From Bdellovibrionales bacterium (lineage in GTDB: Bacteria; Bdellovibrionota; Bdellovibrionia; Bdellovibrionales; JAGQZY01): a stretch of 64,000 nt of DNA. The position numbers and the translations under genes are program-made. The stretch lies in contig CAXRHT010000001.1 in the NCBI GenBank assembly GCA_964230645.1, positions 864,001 to 928,000 on the forward strand. The letters run 5' to 3'. Shown here one piece after another: positions 38,778 to 57,610 of the stretch; position 1 is the stretch's first letter; the number at the start of each line of letters is the position of its first letter. The notes under the pieces were generated by a model. It was not told the DNA's origin, did no database searches, and saw nothing but the letters and a program-made list of their open reading frames with translations.

Positions 38778-39635
38778 TTAGAAAATAGACTTACAAAGCC
38801 TAGCTCTCAGTGGCATCACCACATTGGTGTGATCCAAAGGCTTTTCGTTTTCGACGTTACGACGATTGAGAGCGCTGATGGAAAGACCATCTGACCAACC
38901 TCTTGCTTCAAGTTGCAAAAACCTCGTTTTTAAATCTTCAATGGCACTCATGTAACTCTCAATAAATTCAGAATCTCTGGGGAAGCTCTCCCCTAGCTCA
39001 TGAAGTCCGTAGTTAGCCATCTTGTGTGATTCTCCAGGCAGAAGACTTCTTAGTGGCGAGATGGCACGGTAGCTCACAAAGCCAAGCTTAGTTCTTCCTT
39101 CGGTTAAAACAAGGCCTGCGTTCACATTCATAATAAGGCTATTGATCTCAACAATTCGTAAGGGAAGCCTTTTTGCTCGAAGTTCCAAAACCTCTTCAGT
39201 CACACCCTCTGATTGAGAAAGAATGGATACAAAATCTTGAGCCATGTCCATTTTGCTGGAGCGGTCGGAAGCATAGACACCAGGGCGAAGTTCCATTATT
39301 TGATCAAGCTTACCTGGTTCATCTTCAACCACAAATTCGGTGAGCTCATAAGTGTTAATTCCATTCTGCTCATAAGCTCGTATAGGAACAATTTTATCGA
39401 TCTCTACTAGAAGTTCTGTAGCACTTAAGCGAGAAATCCTAGCACCAACTGTGACGTGCACAGAGGGATGGGGCTCCACTAAGTGAAGACCATTTTGATC
39501 AACCCCTAATTCAATTTGAAAGTTCTCATCAGAAGAAGAAAGTGTGAGAGCTAGCTCCGTTTCAAAGGCATCACTCTGTTGAGCAAAAGCAGGAAACCAT
39601 AGGACTAAGGAGAGGAGAATTAAAAATGTGCGCAT
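38778..39635 (-). CDS. Secreted hypothetical protein, tandem paralog
   Basis: Signal peptide; aligns with 39708-40559 (PIRAYE, YELTEFV, SEGVTEEV, EARGWS); ends CKSIF. Confidence 0.78.
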   Translation of the reverse strand: MRTFLILLSLVLWFPAFAQQSDAFETELALTLSSSDENFQIELGVDQNGLHLVEPHPSVHVTVGARISRLSATELLVEIDKIVPIRAYEQNGINTYELTEFVVEDEPGKLDQIMELRPGVYASDRSSKMDMAQDFVSILSQSEGVTEEVLELRAKRLPLRIVEINSLIMNVNAGLVLTEGRTKLGFVSYRAISPLRSLLPGESHKMANYGLHELGESFPRDSEFIESYMSAIEDLKTRFLQLEARGWSDGLSISALNRRNVENEKPLDHTNVVMPLRARLCKSIF

Positions 39636-39707
39636 AAAAGGGGGTGTAGCATAGGCAAGGCTTTGCCATGAGGAGAATTTAAAAAGATGTAAAAAAATCA
39701 CTGAAAC

Positions 39708-40559
39708 CTAAAAGATCTTCTGGCAGCTCGGTGCCATAAGGGGATAAACCACATTGGTGTAATCGATAGCCTCTTCTCCCTCATCAAGGGATCTTTGGTT
39801 CTCAGCGCCCATTAAAAACCCAAAGGACCAACCTCTGGCTTCGATCGCTTGGTTTCTAACCCTTAGATCACTAATCGCTGCAAGATATCTTTGAATAAAA
39901 GAGTCTTCAGGAGAAAAAGCCTCACCCATATCTTTTATCATGTAGTTTGCATTTATCCCTCGGCCCACAGAAAAAACATCTCCAAGGGGTCGTGCCCTAT
40001 AGCTTAGGGTTTGAAGAGAACTTCGGCCTTCTTTTAGAACAGTTTCCCCTTCTACAAATAGAATCATGCTTTCAAGCTCGACTAAATGAAGAGGACTCCC
40101 CTGATCCATAAGCTGAGAAACCTCTTCGGTCACCCCCTCTGAGTTTTCCACTTGATTGACAAAATCAAGAGCCTCTTCCGTTGTTCCATTTTCAACATTA
40201 GCAAAATGACCCGGGCGAAGATTCATAATTTTATCAAGCCTTTGAGGCTCAACTTCAATAACAAACTCGGAGAGTTCATACATTACAATTTCGCCTCTCT
40301 CATAAGCTCTCACCGGAACACTTTCTGGAAGGCTCACTAAAACTTCACTCTCTCCCATTCTGGTAAAATGAGCACGTACTGAAAGGCGCAATTTATCCTT
40401 GGGCCTTACTACATAAAGCCCTTCTCTTTCATGACCAACTTCCATCACATATTCGGGATCAAAAGAAATAAGAGATAAGCTGACATTCGCCTCAAAGGCC
40501 TCCTGCGCGAGGCAGGAGACCGAGGCACACATCAACAATAAAACAACAAAAGAACGCAT
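39708..40559 (-). CDS. Secreted hypothetical protein, tandem paralog
   Basis: Signal peptide; PVRAYE, YELSEFV, SEGVTEEV, EARGWS; ends CQKIF. Confidence 0.78.
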   Translation of the reverse strand: MRSFVVLLLMCASVSCLAQEAFEANVSLSLISFDPEYVMEVGHEREGLYVVRPKDKLRLSVRAHFTRMGESEVLVSLPESVPVRAYERGEIVMYELSEFVIEVEPQRLDKIMNLRPGHFANVENGTTEEALDFVNQVENSEGVTEEVSQLMDQGSPLHLVELESMILFVEGETVLKEGRSSLQTLSYRARPLGDVFSVGRGINANYMIKDMGEAFSPEDSFIQRYLAAISDLRVRNQAIEARGWSFGFLMGAENQRSLDEGEEAIDYTNVVYPLMAPSCQKIF

Positions 40560-43260: not shown

Positions 43261-43340
<80 letters not shown>

Positions 43341-43694
43341 TTAGGCTCATTCAATTGAGCCATTTTCTCAACTACCCAATTTTGTTAACCAATGGAATCA
43401 GCCGCTTAGAGTGTTCGCCCCTTCGAAGTATCATTTTTAATCAGCAAATTTCTTTAAGTTTGCCAGATTCAATGCCTGATTTTGCCTGACGATTTATTGT
43501 TCCAATATATAAATAGATGACAGCGTCTTATCCCAACATTTAAGCAACTTTAGTTCTCTTCACTGAGGCAACAGCGCAGTCACATTAAAAGTTAAACTTT
43601 ATCTACGACAATGCATCCCACAAAATTCTGTTTTTGTTTGTATTGCAAAATGTAATCAATAATTATTGCATAAAGTATTTCTAAGGAGGGGAAG

Positions 43695-43901
43695 ATGGAA
43701 ACTTTAGCTCTACAAAAGAAAAACAAGAGGGACTCAACTTTAACCGTTAGACTCCCCGAAAACATCTACACTAAAGTAAAACGAATTGCGAAAAATCTTA
43801 ATCGTAGCCAATCAGAGATTGTTGAACTTGGAATACTGTTGGTCGATAAAGAGTTCCAAAAAAAGTTTGGAAACAAAAAAAGAGAAAAAGGCTCCAAATG
43901 A
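43695..43901 (+). CDS. Ribbon-helix-helix (CopG/Arc-like) regulator
   Basis: STLTVRLPENIY..VKRIA..NRSQSEIV; AAGGAGG RBS; ATGA overlap with next gene. Confidence 0.8.
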   Translation: METLALQKKNKRDSTLTVRLPENIYTKVKRIAKNLNRSQSEIVELGILLVDKEFQKKFGNKKREKGSK

Positions 43902-45451
43902 GCACATCTTCTCTAGGCTCTATAAATCTTCAGAAGTACCTGTCAGGTTGTGGTGGCGCTGTGCGTGGCACCATGTTGAATGACTGTAAGAACAGATTTT
44001 ATTCAGAAGACTACGAGTTCCGGACATTAAAGAAAAGCTTGATAGCAATCTCCAAGAAAAACGGCACCGGTGACACCGTGGTATTTCCTGCAACTATTCC
44101 TATTTCTCCTGAGATAGTTGCTTTTATGGGGTTATATAGCGGTGATGGAGCCAAAGGCAGTGAGGACCCCAAAAAACCAGGTGCACTGAAAACCTCTATT
44201 GCGTTCTCACAAAGAGAACCTAATTTAGTAAAATTTGCCGTTGGTTCATTCAGATACCTATTTGGTTCCAGTGTTAGATTTACTTACTCTCTTGGCGAAG
44301 ACAGTGCCTACTTTATGGCAGACGAAGGGCTTGAAAAGCTTAAAAAACACTACAATGGGAAATTACCAAGAATACCAAAGCTTAGCTCCATTAGAACCAA
44401 TTTAAATGCTGCAGATGTACGCTACTTACAAGAAAGACGACCCGTTCCTGGTAGTAATGAGGAGCACTTGGCCTTCTATTATTTTCACAAAGCAGCAATG
44501 GAAAAGATCTTGGCCGCCGAAAAGCTAAAAGAGATTCAGAGAGCAGGGATAAGTATTGGCCGGGAAGATAAAATTAGAGCCTCCCTTCGGAGGCCATTCA
44601 AAAAAGGCGCGAGGTCTCCAGGGGGAAGCAGCCGATCCGACGAGTTGTACCTTGGTGGCTTGAATGGTTTTGGCGAATTGTTTTTGCGGATCCTGCAAAG
44701 TGCTGAAGAAACTCTCCTGGAAAACATTGAAAAGTCTAGGGATGACCTCATCCACTGGGAAAAGAAGCCTGAAGAAGGTACCACACTAGATTTATATGAT
44801 TTTTTTACTAATAGTAAGTACTCAAAAATTGAAGGCAGCAGTCCGAAAGTTGAACAATCTGGTCCATATCAACTAAAAGCTAAGTGGGGGACAGGAAAAG
44901 AACTTCTAATAAATAGCAAAATCGACATCAGCCCCCTTTGGCTATATGGTGCAGGACTTTATCTTGCTGAAGGAAGCACTCCTAAGAGCAAATTTTTTTC
45001 GATGTATAAAAGAAAAGAGACTGGGTTTGCAGTTGGATTCACCTCTTCTGAGGGAGCTAGCTTAGAGCTCTACTTAAAATGCCTACAGAAAATTTTTCGC
45101 AAAGAGGATTGCGTTTCAAATTGGAAAATCAAAGTTGGATCACAATATTTCCCCGAACTTGTTAATATTGGGCTGAAATGGGGTATGCCTATGTTGCGCG
45201 GTGGGAATAGCGGAGATGGCAAACTAAGAACGGCCGAAATTTCAATCGACCTTAAAGACTGGGGCCTAAATGTCGCTGACTACCTAAAAAACTATGAAGA
45301 ACTTTTCACTCACGTTGAGCCAACAGGCGCTGGCGTCCCAAGGGTTGATGTTTCAGCGTCCTCAGCATTATCAAAATGGTTTTTTACCTTAATGATGTAC
45401 AGTGTCTTTCATAGAATTTCACCAAACCCAAAGGATGACTTCTGTGATTAA
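43898..45451 (+). CDS. Putative endonuclease with two LAGLIDADG-like domains
   Basis: ISPEIVAFMGLYSGDG (D83)..IAFSQRE and ISPLWLYGAGLYLAEGS (E358)..VGFTSSE; internal duplication. Confidence 0.6.
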   Translation: MSTSSLGSINLQKYLSGCGGAVRGTMLNDCKNRFYSEDYEFRTLKKSLIAISKKNGTGDTVVFPATIPISPEIVAFMGLYSGDGAKGSEDPKKPGALKTSIAFSQREPNLVKFAVGSFRYLFGSSVRFTYSLGEDSAYFMADEGLEKLKKHYNGKLPRIPKLSSIRTNLNAADVRYLQERRPVPGSNEEHLAFYYFHKAAMEKILAAEKLKEIQRAGISIGREDKIRASLRRPFKKGARSPGGSSRSDELYLGGLNGFGELFLRILQSAEETLLENIEKSRDDLIHWEKKPEEGTTLDLYDFFTNSKYSKIEGSSPKVEQSGPYQLKAKWGTGKELLINSKIDISPLWLYGAGLYLAEGSTPKSKFFSMYKRKETGFAVGFTSSEGASLELYLKCLQKIFRKEDCVSNWKIKVGSQYFPELVNIGLKWGMPMLRGGNSGDGKLRTAEISIDLKDWGLNVADYLKNYEELFTHVEPTGAGVPRVDVSASSALSKWFFTLMMYSVFHRISPNPKDDFCD

Positions 45452-46436
45452 CAGCCTAATAATACCGTGCCCATTACAACCAGGTACTGAGATAGAATGT
45501 CCAGAGGAAGCCAAAGAATATCTTGCTGAATACCTCGAAAGCGTTTCTTCTTCGATTGAAGAAGAATGCCTCTCTGCCTCAATGTTAATGTCAGCTACAT
45601 ACGCTGACTTCATTCTAAATTCTAAGATTACAGAAAACTGGTTAGATATTTTTGAATCTCAATTACTTGATGGAGATAGTACTCCAGTCGAGTACACAGA
45701 ATGCTTTGGAAAGCAGCTGTATAAATTCAATTGCTGGAAACAAACGACCGTCCATTCAAATTATGTCTGGTGGTGGCTCAGCTCAACACTTGGAAACGAT
45801 ATAACAGAGAAAGTATTGGACAACCTCACTACGTTCAAACAGGGCTCAGGTTGGTTCTTTAATAAAGAGGTCAGCTGCACAAACCCTAGAACAAGAATGA
45901 AAACAGAACTATTGATGAATTTGTCACTGACAGCTGAAATTGCAAAGGCCTCTGATACTCAAAGAACACTTATTGCAAACCTGGAAAGCACAGCCTCTTC
46001 AGTGCCAAATCTAGGATTTTTAGGAGCAGAGTATTATAGGGCAAAATGCCTATCAATGGAGAATGAACAGTTTCAAGCCAACGATTTAGAGGCACTTTTT
46101 GATGCATGCTCCACGCCTATTGGCTTCAGTGATTTTAATGTAACATCAAAGAAAGATGATTACATGGGAACAGCTAAAAGGGTTGGTAGGGACGCAGCAA
46201 TAATGTCGCCAATAATCAATCTTTATGCACATGAACTAAGCCCCCTCGTCAATGATGAAACAAAGACCAAAATTCTAGTGGGTGTCAAAAGTGCTATGAG
46301 GTTTTTGGAAGATAACCCTCTAAATTTACCAGGATACACAATAAGGGACACAGGTTTTTTATTCGGAAGTGGCGTAACCCCTAACGAAGTAATTAGCTCA
46401 ATTTTTTTGTTAAACCTTCAACATCATGGATTATAG
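45435..46436 (+). CDS. Hypothetical protein in methyltransferase operon (possible alpha/alpha barrel)
   Basis: Overlaps upstream stop; start ATG 45435 or GTG 45444; one QGSGW motif. Confidence 0.65.
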   Translation: MTSVINSLIIPCPLQPGTEIECPEEAKEYLAEYLESVSSSIEEECLSASMLMSATYADFILNSKITENWLDIFESQLLDGDSTPVEYTECFGKQLYKFNCWKQTTVHSNYVWWWLSSTLGNDITEKVLDNLTTFKQGSGWFFNKEVSCTNPRTRMKTELLMNLSLTAEIAKASDTQRTLIANLESTASSVPNLGFLGAEYYRAKCLSMENEQFQANDLEALFDACSTPIGFSDFNVTSKKDDYMGTAKRVGRDAAIMSPIINLYAHELSPLVNDETKTKILVGVKSAMRFLEDNPLNLPGYTIRDTGFLFGSGVTPNEVISSIFLLNLQHHGL

Positions 46437-46456
46437 ACCAATAAAAGGAGAACTCG

Positions 46457-48058
46457 TTGAAACACAACTATGATCAACAGCTTGAATTTGACGAAGTCAA
46501 TAGCGGAGAAGACAAAAATATGCTCTTTCCTAAAACCTATATACAGCCATTTGAGCGAGTTTTAGCAGAGCTCGAATTAAATACTTTTGTAGATAAAAAA
46601 TTCGACCTAGCCAGCTATGACATCAGCTCCGACGAACTAAAGCCAATTAGCCCTCCCCCAAAGCACAATGAATTCCTAAACAGAACTGCTTACTGGGAAA
46701 GGATAGGCCCCGGAAAACAACACCTATCACTTCAAGTAAAAGTTGAAGCCACTCAAGCGCTTAATATCAAGTCAAAACTACATCGCGCAAGAAGGCTTCG
46801 GTACGGACCCCATGATTTCCACGAATACCGCGGCAAGTTTTTTCCACAGCTTGTCAGGTCAATATTGAATATTACCCATGTTGAAGTCGGTGCTACTGTC
46901 CTTGATCCATTTAGTGGGTCCGGGACAACTCTTGCTGAGGCCACCTCAACGGGCATGAAAACAATTGGTACCGACATGAATCCCCTATCTGTACTCGTAT
47001 CAAAAGCTAAGACTGAAATTTATCAACTTGGACATAGGCAATTAGAACGACTGATTAAAAAACTTATATCGAATGTTAATAAATACGACGGGACACAAGA
47101 AGACCTTAAAAAAGTCTGGTCCCAGACTGATATAGAGTACCTTGAGAGATGGTTTCCAAGGCATACGTTGAATGAACTAGCTTTTGTCAGAAGAACTTGT
47201 GACAAAATTAGCAACAAGGACAACGTCGTAATCTTTCATGCCTGGCTCAGTAATATTATCAGAGGCGTCTCATGGCAAAAGGCCGAAGACCTTCGCGTTC
47301 GAAAAGAAATTCGAAAAATCCCAAAAAACGAAGCAATAAGGAATTTCTTGTCTGAAGTTGAAAAGCAAACATCCCGAGTATTGCCTTACCTTGAAGTATT
47401 AGAACAACACGAGCCTAGTTTCCATACAGCAAAGGTATTGCTGTCAGACGCAAGAAGCCTCACAACCTCACATCCAGACCTTTTGGGAAGAGTTGACTCA
47501 ATTATTACATCGCCACCATACGCAACAGCGCTCCCTTATCTAGACACAGATAGATTAAGCCTGATAGTTCTGGGGCTACTTCCTAGGAACCAGCATAGAA
47601 GTCAAGAAACCGACATGATTGGTACTCGGGAAGTAACTGAGCGAAAGCGAAAAGACCTATGGGATACTTATCTTTCGCGAAAAAATGAGCTCCCAAACTC
47701 AATTACCACCGTCATTGACCTGGTTGCGAAGCATAACCATCAGGATGAGGTAGGATTCCGCCGCAGAAACCTACCTGCCTTATTAGGTAAGTATTTTCTC
47801 GACATGGCTGATGTATTAAACGAGTCAAAGGCCGCCCTGAGACCCAAAGGATATGCTACATACGTGGTAGGAAACAATAGCACCAATCTTAGCGGCCAAA
47901 AAACTATTATTCCTACAGATGAGTTCCTATGGGAGCTAGGAGAACATATAGGATTAAAACAAGTCAGAGCGATCAATATGGAACTACTCACCTCTAGAGA
48001 TATATTCAAAGAAAACAGGGGCTCTAGCGAAACAATTTTAATTTTTCAAAAGGATTAA
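46457..48058 (+). CDS. DNA amino-methyltransferase, alpha class, probably m4C
   Basis: HEYRGKFFPQL, VLDPFSGSGTT (motif I), ITSPPY (motif IV); TTG start with AAGGAG. Confidence 0.9.
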   Translation: MKHNYDQQLEFDEVNSGEDKNMLFPKTYIQPFERVLAELELNTFVDKKFDLASYDISSDELKPISPPPKHNEFLNRTAYWERIGPGKQHLSLQVKVEATQALNIKSKLHRARRLRYGPHDFHEYRGKFFPQLVRSILNITHVEVGATVLDPFSGSGTTLAEATSTGMKTIGTDMNPLSVLVSKAKTEIYQLGHRQLERLIKKLISNVNKYDGTQEDLKKVWSQTDIEYLERWFPRHTLNELAFVRRTCDKISNKDNVVIFHAWLSNIIRGVSWQKAEDLRVRKEIRKIPKNEAIRNFLSEVEKQTSRVLPYLEVLEQHEPSFHTAKVLLSDARSLTTSHPDLLGRVDSIITSPPYATALPYLDTDRLSLIVLGLLPRNQHRSQETDMIGTREVTERKRKDLWDTYLSRKNELPNSITTVIDLVAKHNHQDEVGFRRRNLPALLGKYFLDMADVLNESKAALRPKGYATYVVGNNSTNLSGQKTIIPTDEFLWELGEHIGLKQVRAINMELLTSRDIFKENRGSSETILIFQKD

Positions 48059-48060
48059 GA

Positions 48061-49215
48061 ATGGAAATCAGAACATCTATATACACAGACAAAGATTTAC
48101 CTGAATTGCGAAAAGTAGGCATTGATTGGGATTTCTATGATGCTAAGACAAACAGCTACTTGCACAAACTCCATCCATACCCAGCTAAATTCATCCCCCA
48201 GATACCGCACAAAGCTATAAGTGAATGGAGCAAAAAAGGCGACATGATTCTTGACCCCTTTTGCGGCTCAGGGACAACCCTGCTAGAGGCCTCGCTACTG
48301 ATGAGGCCGTCCTTGGGTGTAGACAACAACGGTGTCGCTTGCCTTGTTAGCAAAGTGAAAACTACTAAATACTCGAAAAATGACATAAAGTGCTTCTCAG
48401 AGCTTCTTGAATCAATAAAAGAATCTAAGTCAAAAAAGAAGAACCCATCCACAGCGCCAAGTTATAAAAATATGGACTATTGGTTTGAAGAGGACGCAAT
48501 AGGTGATTTGTCTAAGATAAAATCTTCTATCTTAGAATTTGAGAACAAGAAAGTTGAAGATCTAGGCATGGCAATAATGTCCTCGATAATTGTGAGAACA
48601 TCCAAGCAGGATAGTGACACCAGATACTCCAGAATTGATCGCGAATATTCTAAAGGCGATGCTTTTGATTGGTTCCTGAGAAAAGCGAAGACTATCACAA
48701 AGGATCTCTTAGAGTACGTTGATGTAAAAAGAGAAAAATCTAAGGTCAAGCTTGGAGACTCCAGAAAGTTAAAGTTTATTGGGGACAACAGCGTTGATCT
48801 CATTGTAACGTCTCCTCCGTATTTGAATGCCTACGACTACCATAAATATCATAGACATAGACTTCATTGGATAAATGCTGATGTCCCCTTTGCCCGGGAT
48901 CTAGAGATTGGCAAACATGATACCTTTACCCGACCCAAAGCAACTCCTGATCGATATTTCCATGATATGAAGGAATGTTTTACGGAATGGTCTCGCGTTC
49001 TTAAAAAAGGCAAAAAGGCATTTGTTGTCGTCGGCGATGCAATAGTTAGCAAGCAACCAGTCCCTGTTGCTGATCTACTAATTGAAGTCGGACTTGAAAG
49101 CGGATTACTTATTGAACAGCATTACGTCAGGGAGATCAGGAAAGATAAAAAAGCCTTTAACCCCTCTAATTCAAGACTTGGACAAGAGCATTTACTTTTA
49201 TTCAAGAACAAATAG
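48061..49215 (+). CDS. Second DNA amino-methyltransferase, alpha class, probably m4C
   Basis: HPYPAKFIPQI, ILDPFCGSGTT, VTSPPY, RVLKKG. Confidence 0.92.
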   Translation: MEIRTSIYTDKDLPELRKVGIDWDFYDAKTNSYLHKLHPYPAKFIPQIPHKAISEWSKKGDMILDPFCGSGTTLLEASLLMRPSLGVDNNGVACLVSKVKTTKYSKNDIKCFSELLESIKESKSKKKNPSTAPSYKNMDYWFEEDAIGDLSKIKSSILEFENKKVEDLGMAIMSSIIVRTSKQDSDTRYSRIDREYSKGDAFDWFLRKAKTITKDLLEYVDVKREKSKVKLGDSRKLKFIGDNSVDLIVTSPPYLNAYDYHKYHRHRLHWINADVPFARDLEIGKHDTFTRPKATPDRYFHDMKECFTEWSRVLKKGKKAFVVVGDAIVSKQPVPVADLLIEVGLESGLLIEQHYVREIRKDKKAFNPSNSRLGQEHLLLFKNK

Positions 49216-49712
49216 GACTTTATTATGGAAAAAGGATATTGAGTTCCAGTAGTTGGTAAATACACTTCAAATGATTTAACTGTTTAAAGACGTGAAAAAT
49301 ATTAAATGGCTCGGGTTAATCTCGCGCTCGTTTTTGCAACTTACAACTCTGTCCCAAAACCTATAGTGCTGATTTCCAAGGTCAGCATACGTGGCGTTTC
49401 GCAGAGGTCTTCTGGCCTTCGCCTCCTCTGTAGCCGTTCGATGAATATACGTCTCTAGTCCTTGAAATTTACCGATATGGTCCCGGGTCCTGTCGACTCT
49501 CTACTGGTTGGATAAGGCCAGTGCTTTATTTCACGATCCACTGAAATGGGGGGCACAAGATTTTCGGAAGTTTGAATATCCAAAACTAGCCTGTAGCATG
49601 ATTTCGCTCAAATCGTCTCATTTTGAAACCCTAATAGAAACTAATCCAGACAACTTCAAAATGAGCGCAACTATTTTCTCTTTTATGCGTTCTCCTACTA
49701 ACATAGGGGGCT

Positions 49713-57003: not shown

Positions 57004-57340
57004 TCGCCCCCCTCAACTCAGATTTACTAACGATATTATATATTTAAGTAAAAAATAAACAATTTCAACATGATAAGGTAATTTAATTTACCTTTATCTA
57101 GTCGGGTCTTCCATTTTAAAATTTATATATTCCAGAACAGGAATCTCATTAAAATTAGAAGGACTGTACGGAACAGTTGTTTTATTTTTTTAATTTAGAC
57201 AGGCATAAGTCGTTTCGGGGTTCAAACGTTCACCCTTGGATTCATGTGAGCGAGAAACCTTTCCTGTCAGAAGAAAAAAGCAAAGGATTTTTATTTTGTC
57301 TACCGATCAAGAGCAAAGATTTAAAAGGGATAGAAAAATT

Positions 57341-57610
57341 ATGATGAAAGAAACTCTTCCAGCTCTGTTGAGAAATAAAGATATTACAATTAAAGAGCTC
57401 TCTAGATTGAGTGAGGTTTCACCGTCGACTATTTACGAATGGAAAAATGGTCGAATACCTGCAAATATTCAAAACGTCCGAGCCGTAGCAGAGATACTCG
57501 AAGTAACACTCTACTACCTTCTGTACGGCACTCATGATCCGCAAAGCTCTACTCATGAGATATCGGAGAACATAGAGGGCACCTATCTCATTACTATTAA
57601 GAAAAATTAG
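57341..57610 (+). CDS. XRE-family HTH regulator
   Basis: ELSRLSEVSPSTIYEWKNGRIP..VAEILEVTL.YLL. Confidence 0.85.
   Translation: MMKETLPALLRNKDITIKELSRLSEVSPSTIYEWKNGRIPANIQNVRAVAEILEVTLYYLLYGTHDPQSSTHEISENIEGTYLITIKKN

Follow-up and report, generated by a model that had tools for sequence, protein, structure and literature searches.

The present analysis concerns a gene cassette at positions 43695-49215 of a 64,000-nucleotide stretch of DNA from a Bdellovibrionales bacterium (contig CAXRHT010000001.1, positions 864,001 to 928,000), hereafter referred to as the window. A 517-aa protein, a 330-aa partner and two SPPY methyltransferases encoded in this cassette form a conserved unit which is spread over many unrelated microbes. 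These four genes are almost certainly a restriction-modification (RM) system. The whole of the evidence makes a BseYI-like two-subunit Type II system likely, in which a predicted LAGLIDADG nuclease subunit associated with a ring-shaped partner would cut CCCAGC. An earlier note, made from the letters of the window, had proposed a new RM system with a pseudo-dimeric LAGLIDADG nuclease acting on an asymmetric site.

The five co-directional and tightly coupled open reading frames (ORFs) announced in the note were recovered at the same coordinates, including the overlaps and the 20-nt and 2-nt gaps, and the tRNA-Pro gene said to precede them was identified as tRNA-Pro(TGG) at 43261-43337. The start of the third gene had to be displaced from 45402: GTG 45444 is the likelier start (330 aa) since the homologues start there and an AAGGA motif is located 8 nt upstream. 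The resulting features are the following.

43261..43337, plus strand: tRNA-Pro(TGG), context, ~360 bp upstream of the first ORF
43695..43901, plus strand: RHH (ribbon-helix-helix) protein, 68 aa; Pfam RHH_1 20.2 bits, cut-off 20.5
43898..45451, plus strand: large subunit, 517 aa, 57.8 kDa; predicted double-LAGLIDADG nuclease with large insertions; ATGA overlap with the RHH gene
44129..44149, plus strand: LAGLIDADG-like motif 1, GLYSGDG, residues 78-84; D83 codon at 44144-44146, located where predicted helix 71-83 ends
44954..44974, plus strand: LAGLIDADG-like motif 2, GLYLAEG, residues 353-359; E358 codon at 44969-44971, located where predicted helix 346-358 ends
45444..46436, plus strand: small subunit (partner), 330 aa, 36.9 kDa; predicted (alpha/alpha)6 prenyltransferase-like ring
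46457..48058, plus strand: M1, alpha-order SPPY amino-methyltransferase, 533 aa; Pfam N6_N4_Mtase, PADLOC MTase_II 224 bits, motifs; 20-nt gap before
48061..49215, plus strand: M2, alpha-order SPPY amino-methyltransferase, 384 aa; Pfam N6_N4_Mtase, PADLOC MTase_II 194 bits, motifs; 2-nt gap before
48180..48185, plus strand: CCCAGC/GCTGGG, the sole such site within the cassette

At E <= 0.001, 365 relatives of the 517-aa protein were retrieved; the best 119 others are 50-55% identical over nearly their full length, and a profile search adds distant groups of ~470-570 aa at 25-32% identity. Gene neighbourhoods were examined in 23 GTDB loci, one plasmid region, one viral contig and 80 metagenome loci, the remnant L023 being left out of the linkage count. 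The neighbourhood survey suggested in the earlier note gave a near-absolute linkage to the methyltransferase pair: the partner gene follows the 517-aa gene in 85 of the 86 loci having at least 600 bp downstream, and both methyltransferases are present in 63 of the 64 loci having at least 3500 bp downstream. Clustering at 80% identity reduces these loci to 54 groups. A fusion of M1 and M2 occurs in 8 of the 23 GTDB loci, and in a few other loci the two are located upstream or in convergent orientation. The titles of the GTDB loci point to what we take to be ~10 phylum-level groups, including one archaeon. The cassette was not found in 60 relatives of the source genome, nor in 20 relatives each of genomes G062 and G063, and among the 20 relatives of G061 a further complete cassette, a distant one and two remnants were detected.

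Short remnants of the large-subunit gene were observed in L023 (7001-7346), G078 and G087, the remaining part of the cassette being gone, which indicates repeated loss. On a mobilisable plasmid of Priestia aryabhattai (L024:1778-9533) an AAA ATPase/McrC pair as well as an integrase are found close to the cassette, in a surrounding reminiscent of a defence island. A distant member at 24% identity (L127:4424-9937, genome G086) comprises a 490-aa relative, a 405-aa ring and two SPPY methyltransferases, and its ring passes the Pfam Prenyltrans model (33.8 bits, cut-off 26.5). CCCAGC occurs 142 times in G086 for 181 expected, as in its kin. Words containing CCTAG are depleted in G086 relative to kin (0.28 versus 0.79 for CCTAG), which may reflect the site of the distant subfamily or that of another system. 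Another relative (P0119) is 739 aa long and carries ~214 extra N-terminal residues for which no Pfam match was obtained.

The large subunit is predicted with high confidence to adopt the LAGLIDADG fold. In its structure model (predicted local distance difference test, pLDDT, 92.7; predicted template modelling score, pTM, 0.92), D83 and E358 are precisely the last residues of helices 71-83 and 346-358, and both are invariant in 120/120 close relatives and in 25/25 mixed close and distant sequences. The model was compared to 48,161 solved chains using VIA-align and the best 50 rows were ranked. LAGLIDADG proteins occupy the top 14 of these rows, I-DmoI being the best match (Z 9.7, root-mean-square deviation (rmsd) 4.0, 179/183 aligned) and the best unrelated row reaching Z 5.2. 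In a second structure search, they account for the top 42 of the best 50 rows. The pseudo-dimeric LAGLIDADG reading thus finds support in the structure model and in two structure searches. Of the two motif halves described in the note, GLYSGDG and GLYLAEG with their acidic residues are retained, while the 'ISP' of motif 1 is not conserved (S70 in 4/120, P71 in 3/120). The repeat rests on conservation and on the model, because sequence comparison by itself gives a weak alignment of the two halves (32% over 25 aa, E 0.21). Residues K86 and Q105 are also invariant and K363 is present in 118/120 relatives; these are candidates for peripheral Gln/Lys residues as judged from sequence conservation, irrespective of their placement in space. 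Look-alikes of the large subunit in the Atlas, at 0.77-0.82, are considered as leads only.

Neither subunit has a match in Pfam, PADLOC or NCBIfam, where no nuclease match was obtained, and sequence searches of the PDB with both subunits returned nothing meaningful. Restriction-enzyme folds are absent from the structure-match lists obtained with the whole proteins, the insertions being neither folded nor searched singly. Simple motif scans for PD-(D/E)xK, HNH, GIY-YIG, PLD and half-pipe were negative in the large subunit and returned one loose HNH-like pattern match in the small subunit.

As the closest solved folds are homing endonucleases, a free-standing enzyme of this kind next to orphan methyltransferases was considered and appears hardly credible. 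The four-gene unit is fixed over ~10 phylum-level groups, within varied flanks and with 50-55% identity family-wide, and tblastn yielded no match in 50,697 phage records. The gene of the large subunit stands alone in this fixed cassette, rather than within or next to a mobile intron or intein.

The partner, listed as an unknown protein in the note, is a likely second nuclease subunit according to models of its fold and of the complex. The small-subunit model (pLDDT 86.1) displays an (alpha/alpha)6 ring, best matched by GGTase-I beta (Z 15.8, rmsd 4.3, 256 aligned, VIA-align). Cyclases and epimerases score close behind, with no standout family, and rank 50 is still at Z 11.4. The predicted complex between the large subunit and its partner obtains a score of 0.93, the best control being at 0.00; this mark is reached by 116/157 solved complexes and by 2/215 mismatched pairs. 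At least 75% of the contacts are common to the runs, and the partner has a pLDDT of at least 84. In this predicted complex, the face of the ring takes residues ~408-481 of the large subunit through an interface of 66 residues, which contains 16 of the 25 invariant ring residues, a count that partly depends on the alignments supplied to the model. The complex model supports binding of the two subunits.

The masses of both proteins match those of BseYI, an enzyme specific for CCCAGC made of subunits of 58.3 and 37.1 kDa (PMC3017599): the window proteins are 57.8 and 36.9 kDa and the family medians are 58.0 and 37.4 kDa. The activity of BseYI was reconstituted by mixing the subunits (unpublished data cited in PMC1950550), and a REBASE-derived table assigns BseYI, BseYIA, BseYIB, GsaI and PspFI to CCCAGC (PMC4687349 supplement). 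The large and small subunits are quite probably homologous to those of BseYI. This link is indirect, as no BseYI sequence was found to align, and avoidance of CCCAGC predicted for the family was therefore tested instead. The site was picked from the mass match before any counting.

Expected counts were derived from codon-shuffled copies of the same genes. The first set consisted of 72 segments (88 kb) from 20 loci, after removal of near-duplicates (L004, L015, L021), of the remnant L023 and of segments with stops. CCCAGC was observed 11 times in this set for 33.5 expected, ranking 2 of 2080 hexamers by z. An independent set of 35 clusters (140 kb), with one representative per 80% cluster as also applied in the pooled test, gave 18 occurrences for 42.1 expected (z-rank 9, ratio-rank 2 of 2076). 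The pooled count is 30 versus 76.0, all 18 single-base variants of the site being at 0.74-1.23. Separated by gene, observed and expected counts are 6 versus 23.2 (large subunit), 4 versus 15.9 (small subunit), 10 versus 23.3 (M1) and 10 versus 14.1 (M2). The flanking genes, intended as a negative control, are also depleted (30 versus 81.9), and for this reason non-carrier relatives were used as control. Three Lachnospiraceae-type carriers display 61, 12 and 42 CCCAGC per Mb, compared to 105-1054 in 20 non-carrier relatives of G063, and two further clostridial carriers, tested later, display 13 and 16. In sampled genes of the three former carriers the counts are 4 versus 48.5, 2 versus 51.7 and 4 versus 52.0, and 124 versus 134.1 in the kin; these clostridial kin are all related to a single carrier and are not independent. 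An Alicyclobacillus genome is intermediate (44 versus 80.5). At the level of the family, the recognition site is very probably CCCAGC, and this depletion supports the asymmetric site anticipated in the note.

A number of observations weigh against the proposed reading. The structural Z of ~10 is moderate and only ~180 of the 517 residues align, ~330 being unmatched; the window protein has no Pfam LAGLIDADG match, and weak LAGLIDADG_3 matches are found in 3/25 relatives (best E 0.045). No record named BseYI occurs among the sequence matches listed, and one catalytic site per BseYI subunit has been guessed in a review (PMC3017599). The cut of BseYI, given as -5/-1 (PMC1950550) and printed as -5/-2 (PMC3017599), leaves a 5' overhang, in conflict with the canonical geometry of LAGLIDADG enzymes, which leave 3' overhangs (PMC6007267) and have closely set active sites (PMC3017599, section 13). 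Regarding the site, the M2 genes taken alone are weakly depleted, and the source genome does not avoid CCCAGC (965 versus 953). Avoidance is equally absent in G069 (50 versus 45.5), G071 (5 versus 2.4) and G067 (59 versus 62.9), many sites are present in G138 and G139, and carriers among Poribacteria and Latescibacterota (0.66-0.94) are no lower than their non-carrier kin (0.76 and 0.83). Only about half of the cases of orthodox Type II systems are reported to show site avoidance, which is weak when the system was gained recently (PMC4687349), the latter being in agreement with the absence of the cassette from all 60 relatives of the source genome searched.

The most depleted hexamers in the genes of the source genome are ACGCGT (81 versus 300) and the non-palindromic CTTGAC (490 versus 1462), which perhaps mark other or former RM systems of this organism.

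A reading without site-specific restriction was also weighed, in which the first two genes would constitute a toxin, abortive-infection or regulatory module attached to the methyltransferase pair and the depletion would result from methylation alone. PADLOC, Pfam and NCBIfam provide no nuclease match, the source genome shows no avoidance and the nuclease role is here a prediction, all of which suits such a module. It is nonetheless very improbable, as avoidance of the site characterises orthodox Type II systems, unlike the other types (PMC4687349), the predicted fold is a nuclease fold with its acidic residues intact, and two methyltransferases, separate or fused, are the norm in Type IIT (PMC4081073).

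The conflict in cut geometry calls therefore for a non-canonical mechanism, for chemistry taking place elsewhere, or for the family of GsaI. The latter cuts CCCAG^C (-1/-5) and leaves a 4-nt 3' overhang, as LAGLIDADG enzymes do, a geometry with which no conflict would arise. The cassette family could accordingly cut CCCAGC with a 3' overhang like this neoschizomer and be distinct from that of BseYI, the mass match being due to chance. GsaI and PspFI are indeed given for the same site in the REBASE-derived table (PMC4687349), but both masses are within 0.5 kDa of those of BseYI and the CCCAGC prediction derived from them was then passed, which makes this alternative improbable.

Chemistry located elsewhere would leave the RM system and its site unchanged, with a LAGLIDADG core restricted to DNA recognition and another centre breaking the strands: a composite site formed at the interface with the ring, one within the insertions, or a ring resembling a glycosylase and acting in the manner of PabI. 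A separate centre would explain both the 5' overhang of BseYI and the need for its two subunits. The ring carries invariant charged residues (E155, E196, D238, D250, E315, K236, K245 and R246), ~330 residues of the large subunit are unmatched in structure searches, and chains of WhiA, whose non-catalytic LAGLIDADG domain may likewise serve DNA recognition only, are among the structural matches. The interface position of 16 of the 25 invariant ring residues, within the limit given above, speaks against such a centre, which we consider unlikely.

In the preferred reading of a LAGLIDADG nuclease completed by a ring, the mechanism can be outlined as follows. The large and small subunits would bind each other and cut unmethylated CCCAGC. 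D83 and E358, which are probable catalytic residues, would bind the catalytic metals, one per strand, and both active sites would therefore reside in the large subunit. The six bases would be read by invariant residues of the beta-sheets, R231, R246, D248, K410, K412, H472, E474 and R482 among them. The ring would act as a required, non-catalytic activator clamping segment 415-472 of the large subunit. M1 and M2 would protect one strand each, presumably by N4-methylcytosine marks. A natural internal deletion in L005 (6375-8755) begins where the ring gene starts and reaches halfway into M2; it removes the ring and M1 and truncates M2. The large gene has been left whole, with both motifs, in a genome that holds 35 CCCAGC sites. 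This configuration fits a large subunit inactive alone and requiring the ring; gene silencing would explain it equally.

The last two genes were rightly identified in the note as homologous alpha-class SPPY methyltransferases. Both display DPFxGSGT before SPPY (positions 150/352 in M1 and 65/251 in M2) and they share 29% identity over 245 aa. SPPY enzymes show a preference for N4-cytosine, and M1 and M2 likely modify cytosine in this manner. The GCTGGG strand contains one C and no A; hence at least one mark must be located on cytosine, which suits SPPY enzymes. A search for methylome reports of CCCAGC in the literature returned none, and neither CCCAGC, GCTGGG nor BseYI occurs in 6 supplements of PMC4752239.

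The RHH gene, counted as a component of the system in the note, had to be set apart from it: tblastn gave 0 matches in 104 related loci. Inspection by eye located an RHH-like ORF just upstream in only 2 of 43 cluster representatives (L005 and L017), for which Pfam gives weak support in L017 and none at all in L005; a core role was accordingly rejected. The protein is likely a local autorepressor or controller, incidental to the conserved unit. Upstream of its gene, the interval 43588-43668 contains three short inverted repeats (AAAGTT-1-AACTTT, ACAAAA-6-TTTTGT and CAATAA-TTATTG) which are possible operator sites.

The neighbourhood of tRNA-Pro(TGG) is likely where the cassette was inserted, and different genes adjoin this tRNA in 7 same-genus genomes. 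No repeat of the tRNA 3' end that would delimit an island was found near the cassette. An empty-site joint 43339-49359, proposed from one contig (run X1), was rejected: among the pieces listed, a single one ends at 43339, a 708-bp contig which is likely from another organism since 6 of the 59 letters of its tRNA part are different. Elsewhere in the window, two adjoining minus-strand ORFs (38778-40559, 307 and 283 aa) look by eye like paralogous secreted proteins. A stretch of lower G+C content (~0.36-0.39) continues downstream of the cassette and includes a 124-aa ORF (57236-57610) resembling by eye an XRE-type helix-turn-helix protein.

The system itself is likely of a known kind, namely the Type IIT-like RM unit of an enzyme that has been cloned and is routinely used. 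Since the masses and the site match those of BseYI, its activity is likely not new, contrary to the novelty proposed in the note. As for the predicted LAGLIDADG fold of a restriction enzyme, no precedent was found. The folds listed for Type II enzymes are PD-(D/E)xK, HNH, GIY-YIG, PLD and half-pipe, plus an unassigned remainder (PMC2441816, PMC4081073). By term search, LAGLIDADG and BseYI are unmentioned in these two reviews and in a review of 2025 (PMC12707154), the name BseYI is absent from one supplement file of PMC2441816, and LAGLIDADG is named only as an analogy in PMC11997821. Literature searches returned no description of a LAGLIDADG restriction enzyme, nor of BseYI, GsaI or PspFI as such an enzyme, subscription papers, patents and REBASE being outside of these searches. 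Because neither subunit is recognised by PADLOC, Pfam or NCBIfam, these systems look like orphan methyltransferase pairs.

We favour, with some reservation, the view that a LAGLIDADG scaffold was domesticated into a six-base restriction enzyme working only when plugged into a ring of prenyltransferase fold. If true, LAGLIDADG would be the sixth fold of Type II restriction enzymes, hidden in BseYI, an enzyme cloned years ago, and the distant subfamilies (24-32% identity) would represent further specificities of the same design. Such an enzyme would close a gap in the parallel between homing endonucleases and restriction enzymes, would show that a long-site scaffold used in genome editing is convertible to a six-base cutter, and would give the (alpha/alpha)6 ring a nuclease role.

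Compared with known systems, the cassette exhibits genetic features of Type II RM systems of the IIT-like kind, with a nuclease gene linked to methyltransferases and two of the latter, separate or fused, for an asymmetric site. It shares the asymmetric site, the two subunits and the two methyltransferases, separate or fused, with the Type IIT enzymes BbvCI, Bpu10I, BsrDI, BtsI and BspD6I (PMC4081073). BsrDI and BtsI have one PD-(D/E)xK-type site per subunit (PMC3017599), whereas the cassette subunits have unrelated predicted folds. The subunits of BbvCI are alike in size, while those of the cassette (58 versus 37 kDa) lack the similarity seen in the BbvCI/Bpu10I type. BseYI resembles the cassette by its two unequal subunits of ~58 and ~37 kDa and by its CCCAGC site, depleted in the cassette family; it differs in its published cut, whose 5' overhang is hard to reconcile with a LAGLIDADG centre. 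Where the review supposes one site in each BseYI subunit, the present model would put both in the large one, the small one being a helical ring. This ring would belong to the (alpha/alpha)6 toroid fold class of prenyltransferase beta subunits, squalene cyclases and sugar epimerases, but in the predicted complex the large subunit, instead of a substrate, occupies its open face. The large subunit, as modelled, has in common with I-DmoI, PI-PfuI, PI-SceI and I-Tsp061I a two-domain core and acidic residues ending both motif helices. It differs from monomeric LAGLIDADG homing endonucleases by its length (517 aa, with ~330 extra residues), by its association with methyltransferases and a partner subunit in place of an intron or intein, and by a presumed 6-bp rather than long site. 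WhiA/DUF199 is another case of a LAGLIDADG fold put to host use; WhiA shares the fold but is devoid of the catalytic acids (PMC3384342), which the large-subunit family retains.

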